Shown: one piece after another, positions 1 to 55,285 of the stretch
How the letters are laid out: each line of letters opens with the position of its first letter
Numbering within the stretch: position 1 is the first letter of the stretch
DNA from: Anaerolineae bacterium
GTDB lineage: Bacteria > Chloroflexota > Anaerolineae > E26-bin7
Length of the DNA stretch: 59,535 nucleotides
Direction of reading: 5' to 3'
Assembly (NCBI GenBank): GCA_041862415.1
Contig: JBGVTF010000292.1
Coordinates: 1 to 59,535 of the forward strand
Program-made: the position numbers and the translations under genes
Notes under the pieces: generated by a model
The model's database searches: none
Told to the model about the DNA's origin: nothing
The model's input: the letters and a program-made list of their open reading frames with translations, nothing else

Positions 1-807
1 GGTTGGGGAGGCGGCGGGCGCGGCGGCCGGAGTAGCGGCCGCGGCCACAGCAGCCGACGGTTCGACCATCAGTTGCAGGTCATCCACCCAGACCGAACCA
101 CTCTGCCCGCCGCTCACATAAAAGTTCAGCGCGACAATGTGCGCCGGATCAAGGATGTCAACGCCGCCTCCGCCTATCCACTCGGGTTTGGCCAGGTCGT
201 CCCAGGCCAGCGTGACCGGCGTCCACTCCTCACCGGGCGTTGGCAGCTCAACGTTGAAGGGCGTTACACCCCCGGCATCCGCACTGGTCTGCGTGGGGTC
301 TTCCATAGCCACGCCTACGCTCACCGCCAGGCCCGACTGGTCGGACCGCCAGGAGAAGCTCAGGCCCCTGGTGTCCTGCCACTGACCGGGGTCAATGCTT
401 ATGCCACAACCAGCGTAGCCATCTGCGCCGACCTCAAAGCTCAACTGCATGGCCTGGGCGCTGTCGTGACCGGGTTGGCCCGACGCGCAGGTGAAGGATG
501 TGGTTCCCTCGCCGATATCGGACCACCAGCGGGCCTCGAAATCGCCGCCTTCAAAGTCGTCAATGACCGGGCCTGCAGCCAGCGCGGGCAGACTGCTCGG
601 TGCGGGGGCATCTGGCTGGCTGGGTGCCTCCGGTGGCTGTGCAGGTGCCTCCGGTGGCTGTGTGGGTGCTGCAGACACGGGCGTGGGCGTAACTACGATG
701 ACCTCCGGCGTAGGCTGAGCCCGGCCAAGCTGGCAGGCCAACAGGCTGGCCAGCAGAAGCAGGACAACGGCTATGACGATGCCGCTTTGTAATCTTGACT
801 TTTTCAT
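1..807 (-). CDS. Lipoprotein with Pro-rich linker and CBM11/CIA30-like carbohydrate-binding domain (runs off the window's left edge)
   Basis: Not in the ORF track; translated by hand from ATG at 807 (RBS AGGAG upstream): MKKSRLQSGIVIAVVLLLLASLLAC (lipobox), QPPEAP repeats, then VIDDFEGG...W...GLSFSWRS...EWTPVTLAWDDL...GSVWVDDLQL, typical of the galactose-binding/CBM11 fold. Confidence 0.75.
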   Translation of the reverse strand, partial: MKKSRLQSGIVIAVVLLLLASLLACQLGRAQPTPEVIVVTPTPVSAAPTQPPEAPAQPPEAPSQPDAPAPSSLPALAAGPVIDDFEGGDFEARWWSDIGEGTTSFTCASGQPGHDSAQAMQLSFEVGADGYAGCGISIDPGQWQDTRGLSFSWRSDQSGLAVSVGVAMEDPTQTSADAGGVTPFNVELPTPGEEWTPVTLAWDDLAKPEWIGGGGVDILDPAHIVALNFYVSGGQSGSVWVDDLQLMVEPSAAVAAAATPAAAPAASPT

Positions 808-1061
808 TGTAGTATTATCTCCTTTTCCTCTTACGCCGCGCTTTGAGCAAGGGAGCATGCGGGGGCTGTGCGAGCATCGCAGCTTCAAAGCTCCCGCGAG
901 TTGCAGCCTACCGCACCTGGTGATGCGCCAACTGGCCAAGACCACCAGGGCGCGGAGAACAAGCCGTATCATTGCAAGCAGTCTCATGGCCATGAGAGGC
1001 TGAGTGCGGTTCGGGACTCGCTTCCAATTCGCGTCCAGAACGTATTCAAAAAGAAGCTTTT

Positions 1062-3962
1062 CTAGCGATGGAGGCCCATTATCCAGACCCTTAGCTCGAT
1101 ATTGCGGTCCAGGATCGTGCGCTCGCCCCCGCCTCCAGGGACGGGGATCTCATCCGCCGATAGGGTGTAATCGGCCTCAAAAAGCGTGTCGGATGGGTTA
1201 CTGGTATCCGCGTCCCAGATGGACCCCCCGAAAGTCAGATCGTCATCGGGACCCAGCTCAACGTCGATATAGTTATCCGCAGGAGCGTGGTAGCCCGGGC
1301 AATCCCCCATACATCCAATCATCCAATCCCCAATCCGGTCAAAGATGTCCTGGATCGAGTACTCCCGACCGTGGTCCAGCCGATAGCCCCTTATACGCTC
1401 CCCCCACCAATTGGGGTAATCGACACCATTGAACTCGAGCCGTTCCTCCCCCAACTCAATCCGTCCATACCGCATGCCAGAGACCCGAAAGTGACCGAAA
1501 ATGGGCCCCACGTTGTCAGCCCACCACTCGTCGTCACCTAGGTGGCCAGTCTGCAAGCTCAGGAAGTGGACGCGCACGGTGCGCGGGCACTCCTCGCCTT
1601 CCCAAACCCAGGTGTTGCTGGGAGGCGATTCTCGGCCGTAACCATAGGCCGTTACATGGAACTCGCATCTCCCGCTACAGTCAGGCTCAAGAGAATTGAT
1701 GGAAATATAGGGCTCGTCCGGTGGAGTGCGGAATATCGGGCCCGGGGCACCGCCGCACTGCGAATACACCCTGAATTCCTCTATACTCGCCGGGTCCCCC
1801 TCCCATTGCCATACTAGCCCTATACTCCCCCCTATAACAGCATGTGTGATAATCGGTTGCGGAAGCTCCAAGTCCCAGGGTGCCTCCTCCCCGGGTCGTA
1901 GGCATAAGGGGCGACAGATGCGATACGTGACCTCGAACCAGTGTTCCACGAATGGCCCACTGGACCGCCTGTGGATCTCATCGCTATTCCAGTCCTCTTC
2001 AGGGTGCTCCTCGTGCAATTCGCCCAGGCTGAATGGAGGATCCTCTCCGATGTAAGCCCAGCACTCCATATCCACTGTCAGGGGCGGCCAATCGGTATCC
2101 CACACGAGGACCCGGCGGTTCTCCCCGTCCTCGAACTCAAAGTGCCACTCCCTTTCGCCGGCAGGATCGAAATAGTCGGGCTCAGGAGGAACCCTTGTTT
2201 GGGGCTCAGGGCCCAGAGACACATAGCAGTAGACCCCGTCATAGTCCCTGTTCACAGCGAAGCTCAAGGCCTCGACCTCGATGGTTGTGAGGATGGTTGG
2301 TATGGGCTCAGGCTGCGGCAAAAACGGCCAAAGAGGTGCTAAGCCGAACAGACGCAAAGGGCCTGCCGGCAATTCCTCGTCGTCGGCAATGTCATCGCCA
2401 TCGGCGTCCTCCCCCTCCCCAGGGGCCGGACAGCCTATGTGCTCAGGAGGACCGAACTCATCAGGGCAGAGGTCTACGTCGTCGGCGAGGCCGTCGCGGT
2501 CCCTGTCTCCAACTCCGGTGTCAGGACAGCCGCTGGGCCCGGCGCCGGGGACGTCGGGGCAGGCGTCATCCCTATCGCGAACCCCGTCGCGGTCCCGGTC
2601 GGGACAGCCAGCGTGCTCGGGCAGGCCCGGCTCGTCCAGACAGGCATCATCCACATCGCGAACCCCGTCGCCATCGTCGTCGGGGCAGCCAGCGTGCTCG
2701 GGCAAGCCCCACTCTTCAAGGCACGCGTCCTCAGTAGCGGGGATGCCGTCGCCGTCCAAGTCCCCAGATGTCGGACAGCCATCACGCTCGGGCCAGCCCG
2801 ATTCAGTAGGGCAGGCGTCCTCGGCATCGGCTATTCCATCTCCATCGGCGTCCGGGCAACCAGCGGCCCGCGGTGAGCCGGGTTCATCGGGGCAGGCGTC
2901 GGCGTAGTCAAGTAGACCATCCCCATCCCGGTTCCCTTCTCCAGGCGCCGGACAGCCCCCACCCTCAGGCAAGCCCGCCTCGTCGGGGCAGGCGTCTTCG
3001 GCGTCAGAAATGCCGTCACGGTCCTGATCAGGGCAGCCATCGGCAGCCGCCGACCCCGGCTCATCTGGACAGGCGTCAGCCTCATCGGCCACCCCATCGT
3101 CATCTCGATCTGCTAGTTCGATGGCCTCTACATTGATCGAGGCGTGGCCACGGCCGCCTCGGGCGTTGAAGGCCCTGGCGATCAGGGTGTGAGTTCCGGG
3201 GGAGGGGGGCTGCCAGCGAGCCAGCAGCGGGAAGGGAGAGGTGCCCCCAGGCAGATTGCTGGCCTGGGTCTCTTGCAACTGACCATCTACCCACAGCTCG
3301 ACACGGACCACCTTGCCTTCGTCACGGGCAATGGAGTGAACAGTCACTTCCTGTCCCACCTCCACCTGTTCCCCGTGGCGGGGCGAGCGGATCAACACCA
3401 ACGGTCTTGCCTCCGGCCTTGGCCACAGGAAGAAGTAGCCCAAGGCGGCCGCCACAGCCAGGACGAAGCACAGCCCCAGCAGAGCGGTCAATGGGATCAG
3501 AAACCTCCCTCGCCTTCTCGCCGGAGGCCTAGGGGCGTATGCCGGCGGAGGCAGGGCAGGGGGAGGCGGTGCAGCAGGGCGCGGCCCTTCGACAGGCTCA
3601 GGGCGTGGCGGGGCGTAGGCGGGGGCCACCGGCAGGGCCTGGAAGCCGAGGAGCACCGTCGGGCCCAGACCGATGGCGTCGCCTGGTTGCAGCACCTGGG
3701 GGGCGGTGAGGCGCACCCCGTTGACGAAAGTGCCGTTGGCGCTGCCCAGGTCCTGGATGATGAACTGGCGCCCGTCCCAGGTCAGGCTGGCGTGGCGGCG
3801 GGAGATCTGGGGGTCGCTGACCACCACGTCGTTGCCCACCTCGCGACCGATGATGATGGTGGGCCTGGTCAGAGAGAAGCGTTGGCCAGGCTGGGGGCCC
3901 TGGCGCACGATCAACTCAACCGACGGTGGTTGAGAGCCTGTTGAAGGATATGTTCTGGCCAT
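1062..3962 (-). CDS. FHA - Pro-rich - TM - Ig-like - thrombospondin type-3 (Ca-binding) repeats - FN3-like surface protein (copy B)
   Basis: FHA motifs IGR..SRRHA..DLGSANGTFVNG; TM LTALLGLCFVLAVAAALGYFFLW; Ig-like VRVELWVDG..GTHTLIARAFN; 8 full plus 1 partial DxDxDGxxDxxDxCP repeats; ESPPSN FN3 end. Start moved to 3962 (GGAGG RBS, matches the paralog start MAR). Confidence 0.85.
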   Translation of the reverse strand: MARTYPSTGSQPPSVELIVRQGPQPGQRFSLTRPTIIIGREVGNDVVVSDPQISRRHASLTWDGRQFIIQDLGSANGTFVNGVRLTAPQVLQPGDAIGLGPTVLLGFQALPVAPAYAPPRPEPVEGPRPAAPPPPALPPPAYAPRPPARRRGRFLIPLTALLGLCFVLAVAAALGYFFLWPRPEARPLVLIRSPRHGEQVEVGQEVTVHSIARDEGKVVRVELWVDGQLQETQASNLPGGTSPFPLLARWQPPSPGTHTLIARAFNARGGRGHASINVEAIELADRDDDGVADEADACPDEPGSAAADGCPDQDRDGISDAEDACPDEAGLPEGGGCPAPGEGNRDGDGLLDYADACPDEPGSPRAAGCPDADGDGIADAEDACPTESGWPERDGCPTSGDLDGDGIPATEDACLEEWGLPEHAGCPDDDGDGVRDVDDACLDEPGLPEHAGCPDRDRDGVRDRDDACPDVPGAGPSGCPDTGVGDRDRDGLADDVDLCPDEFGPPEHIGCPAPGEGEDADGDDIADDEELPAGPLRLFGLAPLWPFLPQPEPIPTILTTIEVEALSFAVNRDYDGVYCYVSLGPEPQTRVPPEPDYFDPAGEREWHFEFEDGENRRVLVWDTDWPPLTVDMECWAYIGEDPPFSLGELHEEHPEEDWNSDEIHRRSSGPFVEHWFEVTYRICRPLCLRPGEEAPWDLELPQPIITHAVIGGSIGLVWQWEGDPASIEEFRVYSQCGGAPGPIFRTPPDEPYISINSLEPDCSGRCEFHVTAYGYGRESPPSNTWVWEGEECPRTVRVHFLSLQTGHLGDDEWWADNVGPIFGHFRVSGMRYGRIELGEERLEFNGVDYPNWWGERIRGYRLDHGREYSIQDIFDRIGDWMIGCMGDCPGYHAPADNYIDVELGPDDDLTFGGSIWDADTSNPSDTLFEADYTLSADEIPVPGGGGERTILDRNIELRVWIMGLHR

Positions 3963-3987
3963 TATTCGAACCTCCCAACTTTTCCCC

Positions 3988-5148
3988 CTAAGGGAGCCGT
4001 ATCGAGAAGTGGGACCACGAAGACCAATTGCTGTAGTTGCCGGCGCCATCCTGAGCGCGCACTATCCAGCGGTAGTAGAGGCCACACTGCACGCTGGCAT
4101 CAACCTGCTTGCCGCTCACCGGCCCCCACCCGCCAACCGACTGCCAGTTGCCCGGAGTCACCTGCCGCTCCAGCTTGACGTAGTAGCCGGAGATACCGCT
4201 GTCGTCACTGACCGGCATCCAGGCCAGGGTCTGTGAAGATTTGCAGTCAATCTCCAACCCATTGGCCGGTACGGCCGGCGATGGGGCTGGCGGTGGCGTG
4301 GTATCCTGGGGCGGTGGCGGCTCTGCACACTGCCCGGAGACGCGGATGGTCACGGACAGATTTTGCTCCGAGCCATCCCTTCTTATCAGGCGCAAGGTAT
4401 GGGTCTCATCCTGGCAGGGGCAGCTCTGGAAACTGCCGTCGTCGCCCGCTCCGGGCTGCCCATTCACCCAATAGGCTTGGACATTTGACACGTGCCAGTG
4501 GACGGTGGTGCATGATCCCGCTTGGACGCTCTCGTCGTCGACCCAAAGCCGCCAGTCTGCTGGCGGTGGCGGCGGTGGAGTAGTGGGAGTAGGGGTGAAG
4601 GTGGGCGTAGGTGGCTCGGATGTGAAGGTCGGCGTGGGGGTGAAAGTAGGCGTGGGTGGCTCGGGCGTGCCGGTTGGCGTGGGGGTGAACGTTGGCGTGA
4701 TGGGGGACGGAGTCTCAGGGGTGGAAGTCGGCGTGGGCGTGTCGGTCGGTCCCCGCGCAACCTCACCCACCACTCTGATGCTGACCATGGCCGGGTTGCT
4801 GGTCTCCCCGGCGGCGTCGTAGGTCACGACCTGCAAGGTGTAGATGCCCTCCTCCTGTGGGAGCCATTCTTGTGTGACCTCGCTGAAGGAAGCCCCCGGC
4901 TGCGCCGGAGGATCGCGTCGGTATGCCTCGCCATTCACCGAGAGCAACACCTCGGCTACGCCCTCCCGAGCGTAGGCATGGGAGATCACGGCCACGGGGG
5001 TTCTCACAGGCACAGTGAACCCTTCCCGGGGGAAATCAATCCAGGCCCGGGGTCGGGGCTCTACCTCCCCGCAGGAGAGCGTCCCTCCCATCAAAGCGAA
5101 GAGGGTTAGGGTAAGGACTAACTTCCATAACAGTAGCCGTGTGTTCAT
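3988..5148 (-). CDS. Lipoprotein with Ig-like domain, PT linker and C-terminal FN3-like domain (copy B)
   Basis: Signal peptide with lipobox TLSC; Ig-like VAEVLLSVNG..GIYTLQV; TPT repeats; YYRWIVRAQDGAGNYSNWS; AGGAGG RBS. Confidence 0.85.
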   Translation of the reverse strand: MNTRLLLWKLVLTLTLFALMGGTLSCGEVEPRPRAWIDFPREGFTVPVRTPVAVISHAYAREGVAEVLLSVNGEAYRRDPPAQPGASFSEVTQEWLPQEEGIYTLQVVTYDAAGETSNPAMVSIRVVGEVARGPTDTPTPTSTPETPSPITPTFTPTPTGTPEPPTPTFTPTPTFTSEPPTPTFTPTPTTPPPPPPADWRLWVDDESVQAGSCTTVHWHVSNVQAYWVNGQPGAGDDGSFQSCPCQDETHTLRLIRRDGSEQNLSVTIRVSGQCAEPPPPQDTTPPPAPSPAVPANGLEIDCKSSQTLAWMPVSDDSGISGYYVKLERQVTPGNWQSVGGWGPVSGKQVDASVQCGLYYRWIVRAQDGAGNYSNWSSWSHFSIRLP

Positions 5149-5184
5149 TCTTAACCTCCTGGATAGAAGGATGTACCTTCTTCA

Positions 5185-5241
5185 CCAATGACAAAAGCCG
5201 CCCCCGAATTAATCAGGAGGCGGCTTTGTAGGCATCATTGG
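5185..5241 (-). terminator. Intrinsic terminator/attenuator hairpin in the lipoprotein leader (copy B)
   Basis: Minus strand AAAGCCGCCTCC-TGATTAATTC-GGGGGCGGCTTTT, extendable by CCAATGA/TCATTGG; lies between the promoter and the start codon. Confidence 0.7.
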
Positions 5242-5311
5242 CACGGACCCCGCTCCGGAGAGCTCAGGAATCAGGGATACCAGGCATTCAGACTGGGCAA
5301 CTCTGCGCCAA
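5238..5311 (-). ncRNA. Candidate cis-regulatory RNA (riboswitch-like leader), copy B
   Basis: P1 TTGGCGC/GTGCCAA closes a CAGAGT..AGTCTG hairpin and a GGtATCCC..GCTC-TCCG-GAGC..GGGGTCC arm; near-identical copy at 11306-11379. Confidence 0.5.
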
Positions 5312-5338
5312 TCTCTTTTTTATTGCGTGGATATGGTT

Positions 5339-5367
5339 ATTATATCATACTCTAGCGTCTTTGGCAA
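5339..5367 (-). promoter_or_regulatory. sigma70-type promoter
   Basis: TTGCCA-17 bp-TATAAT with an extended -10 TG. Confidence 0.75.
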
Positions 5368-5396
5368 GCGGGCTGCCCTCTGCCCCAACACTCAAA

Positions 5397-6253
5397 CTAG
5401 GTCAGGGCACGGGCAATGCGGGCGGCGACGCGGGCGTTGTTGACCAGCAGGGCCACGTTGGCTCGCTGGCTGCGGCCAGCGGTCAGCTCGACGACCCGGG
5501 CCAGGACGAAGGGGGTGAGAGCCTTGCCAGCGATGCCGGCTGCCTCCGCCTGTCGGATGGCCTCCTCCACCCACAGCTCGACGCGGACCACCTTTCCCTC
5601 GTCGCGGGCCATGGAATGAACAGTCACCTCGTGCCCCACCTCCACCTGATCCCCATGGTGGGGCGAGCGGATCAACACCATCGGCCTCGCCTCTGGCCTT
5701 GGCCACAGAAAATAGGTGCCCAATGCGGCCGCCACAGCCAAGAGGCCGCACAGCCCCAGCAGAGCCATCAGTGGGACCACGACCCTTCCCTTCGACAAGC
5801 TCAGGACTCCGCTTCGCCTTTTCGCCGGAGGGCTGGGAGCGGGGGCCGGCGGTTCGACTTTTCGACGGGGCTCAGGGCGGGCGGGGCTGACCACAGGCGG
5901 TTCGACGGGGCTCACCACAGGCGGCGCGGCCTGGAAGCCGAGGAGCACCGTCGAGCCCAGACCGATAACGTCGCCATCTTGCAGCACCTGGGGGCAGTGA
6001 GGCGCTCCCCGTTGACAAAGGTGCCGTTGGCGCTGCCCAGATCCTGGATGATGAACTGGCGCCCGTCCCAGGCCAGGCTGGCGTGGCGGCGGGAGACCTG
6101 GGGGTCGCTGATTACAACGTCGTTGCCCGCTTCGCGACCGATGATGATAGTGGGCTTGTTCGAAGAGAAGCGCTGGCCGGGCTGGGGGCCCTGGCGCACG
6201 GTCAATTCAACTGATGGCGGTTGAGAGCCTGTTGAATGATATGTTCTTGCCAT
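5397..6253 (-). pseudogene. Frameshifted third FHA-TM-Ig gene, truncated and fused in frame to a duplicated psuG 3' end
   Basis: ORFs 5912-6253 (FHA) and 5397-5987 (TM, partial Ig) are separated by G5 instead of G6 at 5990-5994. After VRVELWV the sequence switches at ~5567 to EEAIRQA..ARIARAL, nearly identical to the psuG C-terminus. Confidence 0.85.
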
Positions 6254-6282
6254 GGTGAGAACCTCCTATTTTCGCCTTGGTC

Positions 6283-6476
6283 GCAACTACTTAGCCAAGC
6301 CTCCCGCAGGTTGGCAAAGAGGACAATTCTGTGCCCGGAAGCTTAGACAAGCCAGCTATTCCAGTCATAAGCCGGCTAAACCTGCGGGAGGCTGTTTATC
6401 AAGAAACGAGGAGGAGTGACAATGGAAGTAATTCCAGTCATAAGCCGGCTAAACCTGCGGGAGGCTGAGCAGTTAC
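6283..6476. repeat. MITE/REP-like element containing a 37-bp direct repeat
   Basis: Imperfect terminal inverted repeats GCAACTACTTAGC / GCTGAGCAGTTAC; perfect 37-mer at 6358-6394 and 6431-6467; inverted 15-mer at 6298-6312. Confidence 0.6.
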
Positions 6477-6538
6477 TCTTGCTCGCAGACATGGCAGCCT
6501 TCGTGGCACAGGGTCACTCAGACCTCCCGGTAGTTTTC

Positions 6539-9421
6539 TCAGGGCAATTCCTCCACAAAAACCATCACCTCCATGTTACCGCCCTGGAGAAAACGCATCA
6601 TTACATCGTCGGGTGAAATCTCGTCAGATTGTATGGTTATCTGGGTGTTCAGAAGTGTCTCGTTGTTGTAGCGATCCACATCTGTGATTTCCCCGCCGAT
6701 AGTCAAAACGTCATCCTGTTCCAGTTCAACTGTCACAAAGTTGACGTCAGGTGCACTGGTGGCATTACAGGAGGAACCGCCACATAAGCCAGGCGCGTTC
6801 GCCACCCTGAATATGTCTGCGACGAAGACCGTGCTGTGGTCCGGCAGGAAATAGCCGGTTGTATGCCCCCCGGCTGCATCAAACTCGAGTGTTGACACGT
6901 AGGTTCCAGAAGCCCAGAAGCTCCCCGTGATAGGTCCCACACCTCCGTGCGCTCTCTTCCACCAATCGCTACCCAAATCGCCGGTGTCAATCTGCCCGAA
7001 GGTGACTCTGACCATGCGTGGACACGGTTGTCCAACCCACGTTACGGTGTTGCTGGGAGGCGATTCCCGCCCGCCGCTGCCATAGCTGGTTACATGGAAC
7101 TCGTCTGATGTACCACAGGCAGGGCGCCACGAACTCGGAAAAGCATAGGTATATCTGGTAGCGCCAGCAGGAGTCCATCCACTACCTCCCGTAGCCGGTT
7201 CGTCCGATAGTCGCCTTGCGACAATTGCGCCGTTGCGATATATTCCAAACCCGCGGATGCTGGTGGGATCCCCGTAGTAGAACCAAGCCAGATATGCGCT
7301 ACCAGCATACTCGTACAATCCGATCTCTGGTGGATGGAAAGGTACGTCAGAGCACGAAACCAGACAGATACGATAACTGACCCAGAATGAGTGTCCGTCT
7401 GATCCACCCGAAGCCCTCTGCCCGATTACATGTCCATCCCAGTCCGAACTTCTATCCTCGTTCTCAAAAAGATGGATTTCCGTAATGGAGCCCAAATCGC
7501 GGTATGCAGGGTCGTCGGCATCGCACTCAATATGTATCTGCACTAGCTCCTCTGTCTCTGCCATTGTAGGCAGGCGATTTTCGCTGCCGAAATGTGTACC
7601 GAGGTCCCAGCTCCTCTCGCCCGCCGGGTCGAGGTTTTCAGCGTGAATCACTATGTCCGGATAAGGTGGATGCTCGATCACAACGTAGCAATTGACTCTT
7701 TCGTACTCGCGGAACACGCGGAACTCTAACGCCTCGATCTCTATGGGGGTTAGAATCTTTGGTACCCCGCCCCCGGGAGGGGGCGTACCGCCCGAAGGCG
7801 ATGGTACTGGGGGTATCCCAACAAGCCCGCCGGGAATCAATTGGAAGACTCTGACCACAGGATCATCCGTTGCCTCTTCATCATCGGAGATGCCGTTGCC
7901 ATTGCGGTCTTCTGCCATCCCAGGCGGCGGACAGCCCGCATGGGATGGCTGCCCTGCCTCGTCGGGACAGTGATCCACATCGTCGGCGAGACCGTCGCGA
8001 TCTCGGTCGCCCGCGCCAGTTACCGGGCAGCCGCCATTCGTCGCGGATCCTGCCTGATCAGGACACTGGTCGTCGCGGTCGCGCACACCATCGTTGTCTC
8101 GATCGGGACAGCCCGCAAGCCCAGCCAGACCATGCTCACTCGGACACGCGTCGCGCTCGCCGGCAACTTCATCGCCATCGTCGTCAGGGCAGCCCTCGTG
8201 CTGTGGCTCTCCCGGTTCGTCGGGGCAAGCATCTTGCGCATCGGCGATATCGTCGCCGTCGCGATCCCCGGGGGTTGGACAGCCGTCGCGTTCGCGCCAG
8301 CCCTCCTCACGCGGGCATGCATCCGTCGCATCGCCCACGCCATCGCCATCCGCATCCGGACAGCCACCAGCGCCCAACCAACCGGGTTGATCGGGGCAGC
8401 CGTCGGCACTATCGAGAACGCCGTCGCCATCACGGTCGTTCGCGATCGGCGCGGGGCAGCCTTGGTTGTCTGCCAAACCCGACGTGTCTGGACACGTATC
8501 GTTCGCATCCGCAACGCCATCGTTGTCTCGATCTGGACACCCTTTCGTATACGGCGTCCCGGATTGATCCGGACATCTGTCCATCTTGTCCGCCACATTA
8601 TCCTTGTCTCGATCGGCCGGTTGGCTCGCATTCACTTGGAGTGAGGCATGACTGCGTGCACCTGCTGCATTGAAGGCTCTCACGGTCACCGTGTGACTGC
8701 CGGCGTCGCGCGGCTGCCAGCGTGTGACCAGAGGCATTGGCGAGGCGCCGCCCGCGATGTTGCTGGTCTGCGCCTCTTGCAACTGCCCGTCCACCCACAG
8801 TTCGACACGGGTCACCTTTCCTTCGTCGCGGGCGATGGACTGGATGGTGATTTCCTGTCCCACTGGCACCTGCTGCCCGTGGCGGGGCGAATTGATCAAC
8901 ACCACCGGCCTTGCCTCGGGCCTTGGCCACAGGAAGTAGTAGCCTAATGCAGCCGCCACAGCCAGGAGGCCGCACAGTCCCACCAACACAACCAGTAGAG
9001 GCAGGGCAACCCTGCCCCTGGCGCGCGGTCGTGGTGGGGGCGGAGCGTAGGCTGGCGGCGCAGCGGGGCGCGGCGGTACATGGGCTGGCAACATAGCTTG
9101 GAAGCCAAGGAGTAGCGTCGGGCCCAGGCCGATGACATCGCCCGGTTGTAGCACCTGGGGGGCGGTGAGGCGCACCCCGTTGACGAAAGTGCCGTTGGCA
9201 CTGCCCAGGTCCTGGATGATGAATTGTCGGCCATCCCAGGTCAAGCTGGCGTGGCGGCGGGAGATCTGGGGGTCGTTGATCGCCACGTCGTTGCCCACCT
9301 CGCGGCCGATGATGATGGTGGGCTTGGTCAGAGAGAAGCGTTGGCCAGGCTGGGGGCCCTGGCGCACGATCAGCTCAACCGAGGGCGGTTGAGAGCCTGT
9401 TGGGGGATATGCTCTTGCCAT
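6539..9421 (-). CDS. FHA - Pro-rich - TM - Ig-like - thrombospondin type-3 repeats - FN3-like surface protein (copy A)
   Basis: Same architecture as 1062-3962: near-identical FHA, 8+1 TSP3 repeats, ESPPSN; divergent C-terminal half. Confidence 0.85.
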   Translation of the reverse strand: MARAYPPTGSQPPSVELIVRQGPQPGQRFSLTKPTIIIGREVGNDVAINDPQISRRHASLTWDGRQFIIQDLGSANGTFVNGVRLTAPQVLQPGDVIGLGPTLLLGFQAMLPAHVPPRPAAPPAYAPPPPRPRARGRVALPLLVVLVGLCGLLAVAAALGYYFLWPRPEARPVVLINSPRHGQQVPVGQEITIQSIARDEGKVTRVELWVDGQLQEAQTSNIAGGASPMPLVTRWQPRDAGSHTVTVRAFNAAGARSHASLQVNASQPADRDKDNVADKMDRCPDQSGTPYTKGCPDRDNDGVADANDTCPDTSGLADNQGCPAPIANDRDGDGVLDSADGCPDQPGWLGAGGCPDADGDGVGDATDACPREEGWRERDGCPTPGDRDGDDIADAQDACPDEPGEPQHEGCPDDDGDEVAGERDACPSEHGLAGLAGCPDRDNDGVRDRDDQCPDQAGSATNGGCPVTGAGDRDRDGLADDVDHCPDEAGQPSHAGCPPPGMAEDRNGNGISDDEEATDDPVVRVFQLIPGGLVGIPPVPSPSGGTPPPGGGVPKILTPIEIEALEFRVFREYERVNCYVVIEHPPYPDIVIHAENLDPAGERSWDLGTHFGSENRLPTMAETEELVQIHIECDADDPAYRDLGSITEIHLFENEDRSSDWDGHVIGQRASGGSDGHSFWVSYRICLVSCSDVPFHPPEIGLYEYAGSAYLAWFYYGDPTSIRGFGIYRNGAIVARRLSDEPATGGSGWTPAGATRYTYAFPSSWRPACGTSDEFHVTSYGSGGRESPPSNTVTWVGQPCPRMVRVTFGQIDTGDLGSDWWKRAHGGVGPITGSFWASGTYVSTLEFDAAGGHTTGYFLPDHSTVFVADIFRVANAPGLCGGSSCNATSAPDVNFVTVELEQDDVLTIGGEITDVDRYNNETLLNTQITIQSDEISPDDVMMRFLQGGNMEVMVFVEELP

Positions 9422-9448
9422 TGTCAGAACCTCCTATTCTCTAGCGAA

Positions 9449-9532
9449 GCTTCGCCGTTCGGCTCAGCCCTCGGCCTGAGGACCTCGGCTGAGCTCGGTC
9501 GAAGCCCTCGGGCCGAAGGCCCACGACGAAGC
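9449..9532. repeat. Nested palindromic REP-like cluster
   Basis: GCTTCGCCG..CGACGAAGC flanks with internal GGCTCAG / CTGAGCTCGGTCGAAG motifs; absent from the 25-bp gap between the equivalent genes in copy B. Confidence 0.55.
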
Positions 9533-9669
9533 CTTAAACCGACGAGATACCAACCACCCCTCACAGACGGAAGGGAACACAGACAAGAAAACAAATCAAT
9601 GCGTCCGTGTTTCTTTTCTGCCCGTGGGAAAAACTCGCTGATTTGTGCAAATGCTGGTCATTGTAAGAC

Positions 9670-11139
9670 CTATTCCAGCGATATCGAGAAATGGGACCAC
9701 GGAGCCCAATCGCTGTAGTTGCCGGCGCCGTCCTGAGCGCGCACTGTCCAGCGGTATTGGATGCCACAATCCACGCTTGCGTCCACCTGCTTGCCGCTCA
9801 CCGACCCCCACCCGCCCGCCGACTGCCAGTTGCCAGGTGTCACCTGTTTCTGCAGCTTAACGTAGTAGACGACGGGACCGCCGCTGTCATCGCTGACCGG
9901 CATCCAGACCAGGGTCTGGGAAGATTTGCAGGCAATCTCCAATCCGTTGGCTGGCACGGCCGGCGACGGGACTGGCGGCGGCGTGGTATCCTGGGGCGGT
10001 GGCGGTGGCGCTTCACACTGCCCGGAGACACGGATGGTCACGGACAGATTTTGCTCCGAGCCATCGCTCCTTACCGCGCGCAAAGTATGGGTCTCATCCT
10101 GGCAAGGGCAGGTCTGGAAACTGCCGTCGTCGCCCGCTCCGGGCTGCCCATTTACCCAATAGGCTTGGACGTTTGACACATGCCAGTGAACGGTGGTACA
10201 TGATCCCGCTTCGATGTTCTCGTTGTCGGCCCAGAGTCGGATGTCGGATGGCGGCGGTAGTGGAATGGTGGGAGTGGGCGTGAAGGTGGGTGTAGGCGGC
10301 TCCTGTGTGATCGTGGGCGTGGGAGTTGGGGTATCGGTCGGGGTCGGGGTGCCGGTAGGCGTAATCGGCGGTGCACCGCTGCAGAGACGGATCTCGGCAA
10401 AGGCATTATTCGCCTCATTGCTTTCGGCGATCACATCGGTGGAATCGAGGTTGATGCCGATGTAGGGCGAACCGTCAAACTGATAGACGAAGGTAGCTTC
10501 ATCACTCGCCCCGGGCGGGAGCCCACCCGCAACAGTCGTCGCCAATTGCGGCACGCCGTTGAAATGAAACTGGATGGTAAAGTCGCTCGGCACCGCCGCC
10601 GTGCCAGCGTTGCGATAAGTGACGCGCGTGTTGCAGAAGGGGACCTCGCCCTTATAACCTGCGACGACCGCCTCGACACTGACGATGGCGAGGTCAGGCG
10701 CGTCGGGAAGGGGCGTGATCTCGGGGGTATCGGTCGGCCCCCGTGCAACCTCACTCACCACCCTGACGCTGATCGTAGCCGGGTTGCTGGTCGCCCCGGC
10801 TGTGTCGTAGGTCACGACGTGCAGGGTGTAGATGCCCTCCTCCTGTGGGAGCCACTCTTGTGTGACCTCGCTGAAGGAAGCTCCCGGCTGCGCCGGGGGA
10901 TCGCGCCGGTAGGCTTCCCCATCCACCGAAAGCAACACCTCGGCCACGCCCTCCTGAGCGTAGGCGTGGGAGATCACGGACACAGGGGTGCCGACGGGCA
11001 CATTAGACCCATCCCGGGGGTAATCAATCCAGGCCCGGGGTCCGGTTTGCACCTCCTCCCCGCAGGAGAGCGTCCCTCCCATCAAAGCGGAGAGGGCTAG
11101 GGTAAGAATGAATCTCCATAACAAGCGCCGTGTGTTCAT
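9670..11139 (-). CDS. Lipoprotein with Ig-like, CARDB, PT linker and FN3-like domains (copy A)
   Basis: Lipobox TLSC; CARDB signature PDLAIVSV..RNAG..ESNEANN; otherwise a paralog of 3988-5148. Confidence 0.85.
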   Translation of the reverse strand: MNTRRLLWRFILTLALSALMGGTLSCGEEVQTGPRAWIDYPRDGSNVPVGTPVSVISHAYAQEGVAEVLLSVDGEAYRRDPPAQPGASFSEVTQEWLPQEEGIYTLHVVTYDTAGATSNPATISVRVVSEVARGPTDTPEITPLPDAPDLAIVSVEAVVAGYKGEVPFCNTRVTYRNAGTAAVPSDFTIQFHFNGVPQLATTVAGGLPPGASDEATFVYQFDGSPYIGINLDSTDVIAESNEANNAFAEIRLCSGAPPITPTGTPTPTDTPTPTPTITQEPPTPTFTPTPTIPLPPPSDIRLWADNENIEAGSCTTVHWHVSNVQAYWVNGQPGAGDDGSFQTCPCQDETHTLRAVRSDGSEQNLSVTIRVSGQCEAPPPPPQDTTPPPVPSPAVPANGLEIACKSSQTLVWMPVSDDSGGPVVYYVKLQKQVTPGNWQSAGGWGSVSGKQVDASVDCGIQYRWTVRAQDGAGNYSDWAPWSHFSISLE

Positions 11140-11252
11140 TTTTTTACCTCCTCGTTTTTGGGCCTTCCCACAGGGGGAGAGGCTGAAAGGAAACGGGCAC
11201 CGGATAAGTTATTAATCAGTCCAGCTTGGATAGAAGGGCAGAGCTTCCCCCA

Positions 11253-11309
11253 CCAATGACAAAAGCCGCCCCCGAATTAATCAGGAGGCGGCTGTGTAGG
11301 CATCATTGG
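11253..11309 (-). terminator. Leader terminator/attenuator hairpin (copy A)
   Basis: AGCCGCCTCC..GGGGGCGGCTTTT, as in copy B. Confidence 0.7.
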
Positions 11310-11379
11310 CACGGACCCCGCTCCAGAGAGCTCAAGAATTAGGGATACCAGGCATTCAGAGTAGGCAACTCTGCGTCAA
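11306..11379 (-). ncRNA. Candidate cis-regulatory RNA (riboswitch-like leader), copy A
   Basis: Perfect CAGAGT/ACTCTG hairpin, GCTC-TCTG-GAGC hairpin, closing stem TTGACGC/GTGCCAA. Confidence 0.5.
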
Positions 11380-11408
11380 TCTCTTTTTTTTATTGCGTGG
11401 ATGCAGTT

Positions 11409-11437
11409 ATTATATCATACTCTAGCGTCTTTGACAA
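11409..11437 (-). promoter_or_regulatory. sigma70-type promoter
   Basis: TTGTCA-17 bp-TATAAT with TGn extension. Confidence 0.75.
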
Positions 11438-11466
11438 GCGGGCTGCCCTTGCCCCCAACGCTCAAA

Positions 11467-12375
11467 CTAGGCCAGGGCGCGGGCAATGCGGGCGGCGACG
11501 CGGGCGTTGTTGACCAGCAGGGCCACGTTGGCTCGCTGGCTGCGGCCAGCGGTCAGCTCGACGACCCGGGCCAGGACGAAGGGGGTGAGAGCCTTGCCAG
11601 CGATGTCGGCTGCGTCCGCCTGTCGGATGGCCTCTTCAATGGCCGCTTCCGCTTCCTCGTGGGGCAGTGCCGCTTCAGCCGGAACAGGCACCGTCACCAG
11701 CGTGGCATGGGTCAAGTCCAACGCCCGGCGCGCCCGCACGATAGCCGCTACATCTTCCGCCCCCTCCACTCGCACGTCAACGGCCAGCCCGCTCGAAGGG
11801 GAGTAGAAGGCGGGCAATGTGTCGGTGCCATAGCCGACGATGGGCACACCCTGGGTCTCCAGCACCTCCAGGGTGAGCGGCAGGTCCAGAATCGCCTTGG
11901 CACCACTACAGACCACCGTGACCGGCGTGCGACCCAGTTCGACTAGATCAGCCGATACGTCGAAAGGGTGACCACGGTGCACGCCGCCGATGCCGCCCGT
12001 AGCAAAAACCTCGATGCCGGCTTTATGGGCCACGACCATCGTCCCGGCCACTGTGGTCGCAGCGTCCTCACTGCGCCCCACGGCGATGGACAGGTCGCGG
12101 CGGCTGCACTTGCGGACTGCCTGGCGTGGCCGTGTGCCCAGGTACTCCAGCTCGCCATCCGCCAGCCCGACCGTGATCTGTCCCCCCAGAACGGCAATGG
12201 TTGCTGGCACGGCACCCTGCCCACGGACGGCCGCTTCCATGGCCCGCGCCGTCTCCAGGTTGGTCGGGTAAGCGAGGCCGTGGGTGATCAGTGTGGATTC
12301 CAGAGCGACGACGGCCTGCCCCTCGGCCAGCGCTGCTTCGACTTCGGGATGAAAAACCAGTGGGTAGTCGGTCAT
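11467..12375 (-). CDS. psuG: Pseudouridine-5'-phosphate glycosidase
   Basis: VVALESTLITHG, KCSRRD, ATTVAGTM, FATGGIGGVHR, DVSADL, GKALTPFVL, NNA motifs. Confidence 0.95.
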   Translation of the reverse strand: MTDYPLVFHPEVEAALAEGQAVVALESTLITHGLAYPTNLETARAMEAAVRGQGAVPATIAVLGGQITVGLADGELEYLGTRPRQAVRKCSRRDLSIAVGRSEDAATTVAGTMVVAHKAGIEVFATGGIGGVHRGHPFDVSADLVELGRTPVTVVCSGAKAILDLPLTLEVLETQGVPIVGYGTDTLPAFYSPSSGLAVDVRVEGAEDVAAIVRARRALDLTHATLVTVPVPAEAALPHEEAEAAIEEAIRQADAADIAGKALTPFVLARVVELTAGRSQRANVALLVNNARVAARIARALA

Positions 12376-12396
12376 TCGGCTATCACCTCTGCGAGT

Positions 12397-12550
12397 CTCA
12401 GTAGATCACAATTGTCACCCTGAGCTTGTCGAAGGGGTCTCGTTACAAGAGGAAACGAGATTCTTCGTCGCGTCGCTCCTCAGAATGACACAGCGTTGCC
12501 TGTTTTGGGCTGTCAGTTTGCCCAACTCTCCGAAAATCGTGATTACTGAG
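12397..12550. repeat. REP/MITE-like palindromic element
   Basis: TGTCACCCTGAGCTTGTCGAAGG..GAGATTCTTCG..CTCAGAATGACA (12413-12490) inside an outer imperfect inverted repeat CTCAGTAGATCAC/GTGATTACTGAG. Confidence 0.6.
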
Positions 12551-27113: not shown

Positions 27114-27201
27114 GAAAATGCTTTAGCGCCCTGGCAGTGTGGACTCGGATAGTTATGATGGTGTGATGAGACGCCACACCCTGTCCAAAGGAGGGGCCAA
27201 C

Positions 27202-27966
27202 ATGCAGCAAAGGGTAAAGACGGGTATCGAAGGGCTGGACGACATGCTTCATGGTGGATTTCTACCCCAGACGGCCAACTTGATCGAAGGAGCCACCGGT
27301 ACAGGTAAGACCACATTGGGCATGCAATTCATTTATAATGGCATCACCAAGTACAACGAACCGGGCTTGATCATTACCTTTGAGGAGTTCCCACAGCAAT
27401 ACTATCGGGATGCAGCTACTTTCGGCTGGGACTTTAAAAAGCTCGAGCAAGAGGGTAAGCTCAAGATCGTCATGACCAGCCCTGAAGTGACCAAACTGGA
27501 TTTGGAGAGGGTGGGAGGTATGATCGAGACCCTGGTGACTGAGATGGGAGCACGGCGTATCCTGATTGATAGCCTATCTCACTTTGAGAGATTGAGCTCC
27601 GACCCTATTGAGCTACGTATTATCGAGTACAGCCTCATCAATGCCCTTAAGCGAGAGGGACTGACCAGTGTCTTGACCAGGGAAAACTCCACCCTGCTAG
27701 GAGAAGCTGAGAGTGAGGATGAAAACGTTACCTTCATCGTGGATTCCTACATACTTATGAGATATGTGGAAATCGAAAGCGCCATACACAAGGCCCTCCT
27801 CGTCCTCAAGCTCCGAGGCAGTGACCATGCTAAGGATATCAGAAAGTATGAGATCACGTCCCAGGGCATCAAAGTCCAGGCCAAGTTCGAAGGCCAGGAA
27901 GGTATCATGAGTGGCAGCCCCCGTCGCATGGCCGAGTCCTTTATCGAGGCTTTCGTCAGAAGGTGA
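27202..27966 (+). CDS. Single-domain KaiC-like (RecA superfamily) ATPase
   Basis: TGIEGLDDML.GG, Walker A GATGTGKT, TFEE, ILIDS, KLRGSDH. Confidence 0.9.
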   Translation: MQQRVKTGIEGLDDMLHGGFLPQTANLIEGATGTGKTTLGMQFIYNGITKYNEPGLIITFEEFPQQYYRDAATFGWDFKKLEQEGKLKIVMTSPEVTKLDLERVGGMIETLVTEMGARRILIDSLSHFERLSSDPIELRIIEYSLINALKREGLTSVLTRENSTLLGEAESEDENVTFIVDSYILMRYVEIESAIHKALLVLKLRGSDHAKDIRKYEITSQGIKVQAKFEGQEGIMSGSPRRMAESFIEAFVRR

Positions 27967-28020
27967 GGGGGTGAGGCGACAACTGGACCGCCAGGGAATA
28001 GGAGAAAAGACCCATCTATC

Positions 28021-28317
28021 ATGACAGCCCTCAACCTGGTTCTAATGACCTATTCTTGGGTAATTATCGCCATACTCCTTTTTTTCCTCTTCCTGATAGC
28101 CAGATTCTATGAGAGGAAAGCCCATCAGAGCTCCCGCTATCGACTTTTCCTCCTCCCCCTGGCCCTGTTCTTGCTCGGTACGCTCAGATACGATCTTCTA
28201 TCTGCCGGCAACTTTGTGGGAGACCCACTTGGAGATACCTTATTCCTTGCCGGAGGGGTGGCTACGACCATTCTTGGTTATCACCTCTTGAACTTGATGA
28301 CAGGGGGGCGGACTTGA
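28021..28317 (+). CDS. Small membrane protein (~3 TM)
   Basis: Three hydrophobic segments; stop overlaps the next start (TTGA). Confidence 0.75.
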   Translation: MTALNLVLMTYSWVIIAILLFFLFLIARFYERKAHQSSRYRLFLLPLALFLLGTLRYDLLSAGNFVGDPLGDTLFLAGGVATTILGYHLLNLMTGGRT

Positions 28318-28643
28318 ACATCGTAACTGCTGTGCTGGGCTCCGCGGGTTTGATGTCCGCCATCTACATCGTCCTGATTATGGCCAGGCTCAGTCAAAAG
28401 CTGGGAGCGGTAACCAAGATGCGAGGTTACTACCGAGGATTTTACGTCAGTGCCATATTCCTGCTAGTGTCACTGATAGCCTATTTTCTGAAGACCAGCG
28501 TGCTGCTGGCCTCCGAGCAGGCGCCAGCTTTGCTGAATAGCGATTTGCTCTATTTGTTCACTTACTACCTGCCATTTGCCATAGGTACAAGCATCAGTCT
28601 GGCTATCACCCTTCGCTATTGGGATTGGCTGCTTAAGGGATAG
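28314..28643 (+). CDS. Small membrane protein (~3 TM)
   Basis: Three hydrophobic segments; translationally coupled; ends YWDWL. Confidence 0.75.
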   Translation: MNIVTAVLGSAGLMSAIYIVLIMARLSQKLGAVTKMRGYYRGFYVSAIFLLVSLIAYFLKTSVLLASEQAPALLNSDLLYLFTYYLPFAIGTSISLAITLRYWDWLLKG

Positions 28644-28650
28644 AGCGGAG

Positions 28651-31600: not shown

Positions 31601-32001
31601 CAGAGACTTTGCCTCCCGTGTTGGTTGATCGCAATTGCCTTGAACAAGTCTTCGATAATCTCTTGGGCAATGCCATCAAATTCAGCCCCGATGGGGGTAA
31701 AATCACCGTGTGCATCAGGGAGGAAGGCGAATATTTGCGCGTAGCAGTCTCTGACACGGGTATCGGCATCGCCAATGACCAGTTGGAGAGGATTTTTGAA
31801 CGTTTCTACCAGGTCAATGGCCGCCCTATTCGACATTTCGGTGGCTCCGGTCTTGGACTGGCTTTGGTTAAGAAGGCCATTGAAGTTCACGGAGGGAAAG
31901 TATGGGCTGAGAGCCGGTTGGAACAGGGCAGCACTTTCTTTTTCACCCTGCCCATCCTGAAAGATGAGGAAGGAGCAGAAGGAGGCAAGGAAGCGCCGTG
32001 A
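28651..32001 (+). CDS. Cytoplasmic sensor histidine kinase with five GAF domains
   Basis: Five repeats ending in (I/V/F)E(N/K)xxLY; HisKA SHELRTPL; HATPase NAIKFS, DTGIG, GGSGLGL. Confidence 0.93.
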   Translation: MNQMAPVSSNLSDIVERKHSRDEELFALDAIAALVNRSTDLEEILNNTLVTALEVTETDAGGIFVRDEETNELRLVAHSGLWPELTQRIRESQGDQGSLFGRVAQKGSPIVVEDIAREPGLSDLAGEGHQALVGVPLSLRETLLGMMIVTSHSPRQFAPEDMTFLTCVSNQLGTAFEKIRLYQEVERRAEETAVLHDIGVATASTLELYEALELIYEQVGRTMKISTFFVALYDEQNEELNFELFVDREKRLERFSVPLAGLTGWIVRSRQPLLIHNLEEEKDNLPAEAMMIGEEHSKSWLGVPLMVKDYVIGAISVQSYQPHAFDEGHERLLAAIASQAALVIENARLYAQSQQRVKELSSLFQAGVATSYSLEVEEVLRNLARRVGRVVDATSVCIWDGNPETQTATLLAHHTGPEATERERISRLGATYSISDCPITLGVLRTRQPLSISVSDPHTGEGDKARLLELGGKTSLIVPLMTRDRIIGFIDLLESRRERQFDHRETRLCQTIANQAAIAVENAWLYEGERKRVAQLKTIGEVGRQIASMLDLDELLHQVVNSLVDVFAYYSASIFLVDADVGEIVLQASACHHRQIDEGLRLKISEEGITSWVAQAGEPLLVNDVAKDPRYRFVEELSDTRSELAVPIRAKGDIIGVLDVQSTQLNAFDAEDLFTLLTLADQVSVAIENAQLYRQTQHRLSEVSTLYALAKQMISSLELDAVLDSIVSALKLSINCRACSLFLLDKKSQMLEIKTAAGIKRKWRKEARLKVGEGIAGKVAAEAKPLYIPDTRQDPSFIPFDPAVRSLLVVPMISRDKAIGALCIDDNKPDAFSPDDGRLLTIAAAQAAVAIENAQLYESSKKRAEELAKAYDELKALGQLQQEFVQNVSHELRTPLTFIKSYVELILEEAMGELNESQRNSLQIVAQRADAMTRLINNILSLQQVEMESLRPTRVSLAEVATTVLESAEAAATKAGIVLKAEMPETLPPVLVDRNCLEQVFDNLLGNAIKFSPDGGKITVCIREEGEYLRVAVSDTGIGIANDQLERIFERFYQVNGRPIRHFGGSGLGLALVKKAIEVHGGKVWAESRLEQGSTFFFTLPILKDEEGAEGGKEAP

Positions 32002-47036: not shown

Positions 47037-47074
47037 TCCTGTCCTCCTATCCGATGATGAGTGGAGATTCCGCC

Positions 47075-50593: not shown

Positions 50594-50596
50594 AGC

Positions 50597-54097: not shown

Positions 54098-54182
54098 CTT
54101 CCTACTGCCAGAATCTATAAGGTTGAGTATCTGGCCGACGCCAAAACCTATCCCTTCAACCACAGCTTGGCTGCCAGCCATT

Positions 54183-55133: not shown

Positions 55134-55285
55134 AATTACTACCTATTCTACTCTTTAATGCCCAAGGCTTGGCTTTGGATGAAAGAGACAGGGATATCGG
55201 TTGCTCTATCCCATACCTGGTGGGCAACCGGCCTTGCTGCGTCTGGACATAGCATAGACAGTAAAGGATACATGCCTTGATTGGC

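Follow-up and report, generated by a model that had tools for sequence, protein, structure and literature searches.

The cell-surface pair TraA/TraB of the multicellular bacterium Myxococcus is encoded by a two-gene operon and forms the complex responsible for recognition during outer-membrane exchange, as given in excerpts of PMC6372800 and PMC3325183. A locus of related outline was analysed in a stretch of 59,535 nucleotides (contig JBGVTF010000292.1, assembly GCA_041862415.1) from an Anaerolineae bacterium, and this whole stretch is referred to below as the window. The minus strand of positions 1062-11139 was found to contain two gene pairs, each consisting of a lipoprotein gene followed by the gene of a large FHA protein, together with a broken third FHA gene, as an earlier note on this DNA had described. 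Like TraA/TraB, so far as the excerpts describe that system, the locus encodes a surface pair of two genes in which one partner is lipid-sorted and the other contains TSP3 repeats. TraB (NF033763) was also the best NCBIfam cross-match of the TSP3 region, at 106.6 bits against a cut-off of 700, and the large proteins are not members of that family. TraB contains an outer-membrane barrel and an OmpA domain, and TraA contains a PA14-like variable domain and MYXO-CTERM, none of which was found here. Unlike TraB, the TSP3 protein of this locus has its anchor in the cytoplasmic membrane and in some cases bears an FHA domain. The lipoprotein and the large protein were found to form a conserved two-gene cassette in which the FHA domain is an optional part, and the reading favoured here is that of a tether or adhesin acting outside the cell.

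OmpA-family proteins, represented by the solved chain 5wtl_A, contain TSP3 repeats of Ca2+ type that are closely similar in sequence and likewise separate a membrane anchor from a binding domain at the far end, and the family profile of the large proteins matched this chain within the TSP3 region (E 6.7e-53). Unlike the OmpA family, the large proteins contain neither an OmpA peptidoglycan-binding domain nor a barrel; an N-terminal helix serves as the anchor, and three beta-sandwiches are present at the distal end.

The SctD/SctJ proteins of the type III secretion system resemble the pair in having a cytoplasmic N-terminal FHA fold, one helix, outer domains and a lipoprotein partner, and Pfam Yop-YscD_cpl was found to match the FHA domain at E ~1e-18. 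The SctD/YscD model TIGR02500 reached 19.7 bits against a cut-off of 86, which does not make the large proteins members. According to the excerpt of 10.1101/2020.09.22.308627, the FHA domains of SctD are without the phosphothreonine-binding Arg and Ser. Unlike in SctD, both residues are conserved in the FHA domains here, no ring-building motifs are present, and no secretion genes were found in the window or conserved beside the pair.

GltG of the Myxococcus gliding machinery connects a platform in the cytoplasm with an adhesion machine that spans the envelope, as stated in an excerpt of PMC11761067. Like GltG and the mycobacterial FhaB/FipA, the large proteins combine a cytoplasmic FHA domain with one helix and an extracytoplasmic part. 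FhaB/FipA (Rv0019c, NF049868) was the best FHA-level match in NCBIfam (76.5 bits against 125), and GltG (NF033760) reached 29.7 bits against 650; only the FHA domain was aligned in either case, and the large proteins are members of neither family. GltG differs from the proteins here in its TonB-like C-terminal domain and in its cooperation with a motor. FhaB/FipA is not known to have a large ectodomain. A limited literature search gave no description of an FHA and TSP3 architecture in Chloroflexi or Anaerolineae, which agrees with the earlier note, and gave no paper on 5wtl; as far as that search goes the architecture is previously undescribed, and modular surface proteins and FHA-headed single-pass proteins are kinds already known.

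The two-gene cassette and its conservation

The genes are transcribed on the minus strand in the order lipoprotein B (P0004, 489 residues, 9670-11139), FHA protein B (P0003, 960 residues, 6539-9421), the broken third FHA gene (5397-6253), lipoprotein A (P0002, 386 residues, 3988-5148) and FHA protein A (P0001 counted from M30, 966 residues, 1062-3962). The broken gene was found to contain its own ribosome-binding site and an ATG at 6253. The open reading frame of protein A spans 1062-4049. Its M30 at 3962, which reads MARTYP and follows a GGGAGG ribosome-binding site, lines up with the first residues of protein B and of the broken gene; for these reasons M30 is almost certainly the true start, and 4049 can be dismissed.

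The pair is a real, self-contained two-gene cassette. Fifteen loci with both genes on one contig were fetched from other genomes, giving 16 loci with the window. In all 15, in line with the synteny that the earlier note required of the pair, a lipoprotein homologue was found directly upstream of one to three large genes on the same strand, with two overlapping open reading frames in place of one large gene in two of the loci. Copy number ranged from 1 to 4 per locus. Three further genomes (G006, G018 and G341), in which the distal domain and the lipoprotein lie on different, short contigs, stand outside this count. When the neighbouring genes were clustered, only the lipoprotein and large-protein families were present in 16/16 loci and the next family was present in 5; no kinase, phosphatase or regulator was found to be conserved beside the pair across the 16 loci. 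One locus of another genome (L064, G134:C6:71000-90900) contained, in ~15 kb on one strand, an array of four large TSP3 genes together with two for lipoproteins, none with an FHA domain.

Of 400 other genomes drawn from the class, 18 contained the distal domain, and of 400 others drawn from the whole phylum none did; the records of related loci are labelled as Anaerolineae or Chloroflexia metagenome-assembled genomes. The cassette thus appears from these samples to be restricted to some lineages of one Chloroflexota class and to be accessory in character.

The genome of the window was found to contain further pairs of a lipoprotein and a protein with a transmembrane helix and Big_7, located on contigs C3, C128, C83, C419 and C483. 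Their large proteins contain LysM, SH3_3 or unassigned ectodomains, with or without an FHA domain. The cassette of C3 contains FHA and LysM, whereas the order is reversed on C128, where a 1399-residue FHA protein is followed by the lipoprotein. Contig C83 contains a protein with transmembrane helix, Big_7, LysM and CARDB, a separate 235-residue protein with a C-terminal FHA domain, and a GDSL/GHL15 protein after the cassette. SH3_3 is carried by contigs C483 and C287.

Domain organization and topology of the large proteins

Each large protein was found to contain an FHA domain, one helix of N-in orientation and a Big_7 domain, followed by the presence of eight two-cysteine TSP3 repeats with one degenerate repeat and of three beta-sandwiches. 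The FHA domains matched PF00498 at 77.5 and 79.6 bits against a cut-off of 20.7, with profile positions 1-67 of 67 covered. In Pfam, protein A contained FHA (E 1e-21) and Big_7 (E 5.9e-08), and its TSP_3 match of 21.6 bits lay under the 25-bit cut-off; protein B contained FHA (E 2.3e-22), Big_7 (E 1.1e-12) and TSP_3 at 40 bits, over the same cut-off.

On the minus strand, the gene of protein B contains the FHA domain at 9122-9316 (from Pfam), the membrane helix at 8942-9010, Big_7 at 8681-8908 and the TSP3 repeats at 7862-8614, followed by the first sandwich (D1) at 7364-7699, FN3 at 7025-7348 and the C2-like sandwich at 6542-7024. The corresponding positions in the gene of protein A, also on the minus strand, are 3663-3857 for FHA, 3435-3503 for the helix, 3183-3404 for Big_7, 2370-3110 for the TSP3 repeats and 1065-2297 for the three distal sandwiches.

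One hydrophobic segment was found per large protein (A 183-201, B 138-156), with ARRRGR or RPRARGR just before it, and neither protein contains an N-terminal signal peptide. Because a signal peptide is lacking and the Arg cluster lies on the N-side of the sole helix, the FHA domain is cytoplasmic, as in the earlier note, and the remainder is outside, in the manner of a type-II single-pass protein.

The TSP3 region contained 16 regularly spaced cysteines, two in each of eight repeats; the ninth repeat, which comes last, has none, and the "8+1" count of the earlier note is thereby reproduced. A regular-expression search gave seven full DxDxDGxxDxxD motifs in P0003 and six in P0001, and the cysteine counts of the ectodomains were even. 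The repeats probably bind Ca2+.

The distal 386 residues matched no Pfam family. Their AlphaFold2 model, built from an alignment of 86 rows, reached a mean predicted local distance difference test (pLDDT) score of 91.3 and was found to contain three beta-sandwiches, namely D1, an FN3 and a C2-like domain. The earlier note had placed two domains after the TSP3 repeats, of which the FN3-like one was recovered, and the number is corrected to three. The FN3 domain matched 7y6e_A (Z 10.2, root-mean-square deviation (rmsd) 2.5, 88 residues aligned), and the C2-like sandwich matched 1cjy_B (Z 9.1, rmsd 3.4, 123 aligned) and 7df2_A (Z 8.8). When the three-domain model was searched with Foldseek, template-modelling (TM) scores over the whole model were low (0.14-0.23 by query) and the structure searches hardly reached D1 (model residues 1-112), for which no new fold is therefore claimed. 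The ESM Atlas leads for the distal part were all below 0.9 (best 0.82) with TM below 0.35 and were not used. The family profile of the large proteins also matched the CbhA module 3pdd_A (E 6.7e-08), and 0 families of the PADLOC-DB defence models matched P0001-P0005 at E up to 0.001. In four family members (P0017, P0018, P0019 and P0029) the sandwiches were found to be followed by two more domains, one CARDB-like and one rich in cysteine, the latter with RITRVH at its end.

Lipoproteins and their predicted contact with the large protein

The signal peptide of both lipoproteins was found to end in GGTLSC, and Cys26 was invariant across 76 aligned homologues. The paralogous lipoproteins of the same genome contained LVAC, LCAC or SSAC at this motif. 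The motif is a lipobox with Cys26 as its cysteine, and both proteins are classed as bacterial lipoproteins. The genome contains one LspA match and three Lgt matches over cut-off, and the lipoprotein is predicted to lie on the outer face of the cytoplasmic membrane, acylated via Lgt/LspA.

The model of lipoprotein A (pLDDT 86.8) was found to contain an Ig domain at residues 31-129 (4762-5058, minus strand), a disordered Pro/Thr-rich (PT-rich) linker at residues 130-196, a small beta-sandwich at residues 197-272 and an FN3 domain at residues 282-386 (3991-4305, minus strand). The Ig domain matched the CbhA module 3pdd_A (Z 14.7, rmsd 1.2, 91 residues aligned) and the FN3 domain matched 7y8h_B (Z 11.0). 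Lipoprotein B contains, after the signal peptide with Cys26, an Ig domain, a CARDB domain (E 2.7e-09; residues 148-248, 10396-10698, minus strand), a PT-rich linker, a small beta-sandwich and FN3; the CARDB domain is absent from lipoprotein A. The Ig domains of the two lipoproteins are 79% identical. In P0004 the Ig domain matched Big_7 at E 3.6e-4, under the cut-off, and residues 153-265 of P0003 matched lipoprotein B by tblastn with 31% identity (E 6.6e-7), which bears out the earlier claim that the first domain of the lipoprotein is Ig-like and related to that of the large protein.

A complex was predicted from three chains, which were the Big_7 domain of protein A, the distal 411 residues of protein A and the mature lipoprotein A as partner. 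The score was 0.66 against 0.16 for the best control, in which Big_7 was kept and the distal chain was swapped. A mark of 0.66 is reached by 116 of 157 solved complexes and by 2 of 215 mismatched pairs, counts that apply only roughly to a score obtained with three chains and custom alignments. The three runs gave 0.66, 0.67 and 0.00, with a contact agreement between runs of at least 0% and a partner pLDDT of at least 68. The confident contacts were found between residues 31-120 of the lipoprotein, in the Ig domain, and residues 609-672 of D1. The modelling supports a binding of the lipoprotein Ig domain to D1 of the large protein, and an interaction of lipoprotein and ectodomain, suggested by the earlier note, is thus predicted.

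Distribution and conserved residues of the FHA domain

The family of the ectodomain, as defined by its distal domain, was sampled with 133 representatives. Big_7 was present in 69, TSP_3 in 45, CARDB in 18 and FHA in 11 of them, and FHA was present in 2 of the 15 syntenic loci. Among the 76 FHA-less members that match Big_7 and have M, V or L as first residue, the helix was found to begin within the first 27 residues in 75. A quick maximum-likelihood tree of the distal domain was built with IQ-TREE from 67 rows, 19 of them with FHA, after rows with fewer than 270 query positions covered or without Big_7 had been left out. The FHA label requires 10 changes on this tree, at least two of which are forced by well-supported branches. 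Scattered in this way over the distal-domain tree, the FHA domain behaves as a movable add-on. Since the FHA-less members are nearly tail-less, the conserved core function must be extracellular and independent of a cytoplasmic domain.

Where the FHA domain is present, its residues were found to be kept. R40, S54, H57 and N76 were at least 95% conserved in 21 FHA domains of the family, and the motifs conserved at this level were G39-R40, S54-R55-x-H57 and N76-G77-T78. The Arg of the beta3-beta4 loop and the Ser of the beta4-beta5 loop are phosphothreonine-binding residues of FHA domains, as given in the excerpt of 10.1101/2020.09.22.308627. The domain therefore looks functional as a canonical phosphothreonine binder. 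A conserved PTGSQPPS was found ~12 residues before the FHA domain, and by analogy with GarA/OdhI it could, as a speculation, serve as an autoinhibitory N-terminal phospho-site.

Proposed function of the cassette

The favoured reading, to which a probability of about 0.5 is given, is that of an extracellular membrane-anchored tether or adhesin to which the FHA domain has been added for phosphothreonine-dependent placement or inside-out control. The lipoprotein on the outer face of the membrane and the type-II large protein would form one complex through the Ig domain on D1. Outside the cell this complex would act as a Ca2+-stiffened tether or adhesin, with the eight disulphide-stapled TSP3 repeats as its wire, and its distal sandwiches would attach to a ligand there, for example material of the sheath or outer envelope, an adjacent cell or a surface. 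In the present sub-lineage, the FHA domain on the cytoplasmic tail would most likely dock the complex onto a protein phosphorylated by a Hanks kinase, which would provide placement or inside-out control and not outside-in signalling. Segmental duplication with recombination built the present locus and left one truncated remnant. The tether or adhesin role fits because the two proteins lie on the same membrane face, the wire is of Ca2+ type, the sandwiches diverge fast, and the distribution is patchy with a variable copy number. Gene and domain anatomy, topology, synteny, the optional FHA domain and the duplication are observed and the complex is predicted, whereas we infer the Ca2+ binding, the tether or adhesin role and the FHA partner.

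Several points weigh against this reading. The beta-sandwich folds carry no functional information, and the ligand is only postulated. One of the three complex runs ended at 0.00, and the rough fit of the calibration counts adds to this. The predicted interface of the lipoprotein was not enriched in conserved positions (4/16, against 29/99 for the whole Ig domain), and only 1 of 12 positions in the predicted D1 interface was conserved. Between A and B, D1 has diverged further than any other part (25-43% identity), whereas the lipoprotein Ig domains have remained close to each other. Paralogous cassettes of the same genome that contain no D1 still have a lipoprotein partner, and the general contact may therefore be elsewhere, for example of the Ig domain on Big_7. 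Finally, in the contigs of run X2 the distal domain contained 52 differences between populations in 1359 nucleotides, and the 5′ end of the lipoprotein A gene contained 14 in 261 nucleotides; the distal domain is thus not unusually variable, which speaks against a hyper-polymorphic, TraA-like recognition role.

A bolder form of the favoured reading, quite doubtful as a whole, is that of an integrin-like heterodimeric adhesion receptor working inside-out. A Hanks-phosphorylated partner would recruit the FHA head and thereby cluster or position the Ca2+-dependent complex, providing cell-cell or cell-sheath cohesion in multicellular Anaerolineae filaments, and recombination would move the head of FHA, transmembrane helix and Ig domain between distal domains to give new specificities.

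The earlier note had described a kinase-less receptor or adhesin that couples surface binding to Ser/Thr-kinase signalling, and none of the three outcomes by which it would have been refuted was observed. As an outside-in receptor, the ectodomain would sense a ligand or Ca2+ together with the lipoprotein as co-receptor, and the altered FHA binding would feed a Ser/Thr-kinase pathway. The conserved phosphothreonine-binding residues, the single-pass topology, which suits a receptor, and the predicted lipoprotein partner are in its favour, as are the Hanks kinases of the genome, in which 34 Pkinase matches over cut-off were found, all outside the window. However, FHA is missing from 122 of the 133 family representatives, and the practically tail-less FHA-less members show that the ectodomain function would need no signalling output. 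Neither Pkinase nor phosphatase genes were found among the proteins of the window, and the lack of a kinase, phosphatase or regulator conserved beside the pair points the same way. Other FHA genes of the genome do lie within a few kb of kinase matches (contigs C465, C405, C158, C242, C353, C137 and C361), unlike the cassettes. A single helix with a Pro-rich linker also offers no obvious path for a conformational change. An outside-in receptor is accordingly regarded as unlikely. With the FHA domain so rare in the family and in the syntenic loci, coupling to kinase signalling is not upheld as the core function; of the two roles named by the earlier note, that of an adhesin fits better, and that of primarily a receptor is set aside, as most members are without a cytoplasmic domain.

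A structural envelope spacer, in which the cytoplasmic membrane would be linked to the wall or to outer layers and the TSP3 wire would form a Ca2+-rigid strut, is quite unlikely. The match of the TSP3 region to the OmpA-family chain 5wtl_A and the wall-binding LysM and SH3_3 of the paralogous cassettes would suit such a part, and multilayered envelopes are described for filamentous Chloroflexota in the excerpt of PMC13319060. However, the TSP3 family members themselves contain no wall-binding domain, and the cassette is patchy, with the 18 carriers among 400 genomes of the class and none in the phylum sample, is present in 1 to 4 copies per locus and has quickly diverging distal domains. Patchiness, copy number and fast divergence fit an accessory function better than a core part of the envelope.

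It is improbable that the pair is a substrate-binding scaffold for the degradation of extracellular polymers, keeping the cell or secreted enzymes attached to polysaccharide in a cellulosome-like manner. The nearest matches of the lipoprotein Ig domain are the X1 modules of Clostridium thermocellum CbhA, the linkers are PT-rich, and a secreted or anchored CBM_11-like protein (E 2.7e-07) is encoded directly downstream of FHA gene A at 1-993 on the minus strand, where it runs off the window; the GDSL/GHL15 protein after the C83 cassette would also suit a scaffold. However, neither neighbour is conserved across the 16 loci, no recognised carbohydrate-binding module or catalytic domain was found in either protein of the pair, and the fold matches are to common sandwiches.

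The identity of the outer layers in filamentous Chloroflexota is unclear and their envelope composition unsettled, according to the excerpt of PMC13319060. For this poorly understood envelope the cassette provides a defined, testable pair of surface proteins that is a conserved unit with high-confidence models, a predicted contact and a set of distal domains without a Pfam family, and that exists in nature both with a phosphothreonine-reading tail and without one. If Ser/Thr kinases regulate the FHA form, the pair would offer a simple model of how kinases control an adhesin on the bacterial surface; if they do not, it would still be a new lineage-restricted family of surface proteins with a dedicated lipoprotein partner.

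Duplication and history of the locus

The locus is the product of segmental duplication with recombination, with one copy left as a truncated remnant. A segment at 5149-5567 on the minus strand, which contains the 3′ tail of psuG and the leader of a lipoprotein gene, is 91-95% identical to 11140-11637; within it, 5183-5567 is 95% identical to 11251-11637. The complete psuG (Indigoidine_A family, E 5e-119) is located at 11467-12375 on the minus strand as an upstream neighbour and not as a member of the cassette. The upper edge of the segment is the duplication junction. The broken gene was found to contain two lesions, the first being a deletion of one nucleotide in a C-run near 5990, which causes a frameshift. 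The second is its end inside Big_7, after VELWV (~5567), exactly where the copy of the psuG tail starts.

The identity of proteins A and B drops along their length, from 92% in the FHA domain to 77% in the helix and Big_7, 47-75% in the TSP3 repeats and 25-45% in the distal domains, and A and B lie on opposite sides of the deepest split in the distal-domain tree. Since near-identical heads are thus joined to anciently diverged distal domains, recombination or gene conversion must have acted besides duplication.

In run X1, likely the source sample, contig record 4 bridges the junction at 5567 without differences, and record 10 of X2 and record 17 of X3, which come from two other studies, cross it starting 30 letters before it, where the rule asks for 31. 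An extra G behind 5989 was found in contigs of X2 and X5 and not in those of X1 and X3, so that the frameshift of the third gene is absent from the former and polymorphic between populations; with an unshifted frame, the product of the remnant would be FHA, helix and a short stub that continues into the psuG tail. Although the source genome is an assembly of 511 contigs (88.5% complete, 5.85% contamination) and one copy is broken, an artefact from strain variants misjoined in the metagenome-assembled genome, or a decaying, non-functional locus, is highly improbable, as the junction is bridged or crossed in contigs of all three runs, the full pairs keep open frames of 960-995 and 386-489 residues, and the homologues are syntenic in other genomes.

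One contig of X5 skips 73 nucleotides, at 6357-6431, of the spacer that separates the broken gene from FHA gene B. At the joint, 37 letters can be placed on either flank, pointing to a short direct repeat, and Tandem Repeats Finder gave no array over 5100-6600.

Leader region and neighbouring genes

Both lipoprotein genes were found to share one leader, in which a strong promoter-like site is followed by a terminator-like hairpin before the start codon. The leader and promoter region of cassette B (11140-11466, minus strand) contains the promoter-like site at 11437-11409, with 11/12 matches and a TG, and the hairpin at 11287-11269. In cassette A the promoter-like site is located at 5367-5339 and the hairpin at 5219-5201, also on the minus strand. 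A search of Rfam over 1-12500 gave nothing at the gathering score, and among 22 runs listed for this DNA no RNA run was found. Judged from these elements, the shared leader may be regulatory. Besides psuG, a peptide ABC transporter is also encoded upstream.

Farther along the window, 43536-56978 on the minus strand contains three tandem paralogues of 1172-1207 residues, in which a PMT_2 (protein mannosyltransferase-like) domain was found; after these come an epimerase, a sulfotransferase and a GT2 protein. As a speculation, this glycosylation cluster could modify the Thr/Pro-rich linkers of the lipoproteins. On the plus strand, 27139-32001 contains a KaiC-like ATPase, followed after a gap of 0.7 kb by a histidine kinase with five GAF domains.

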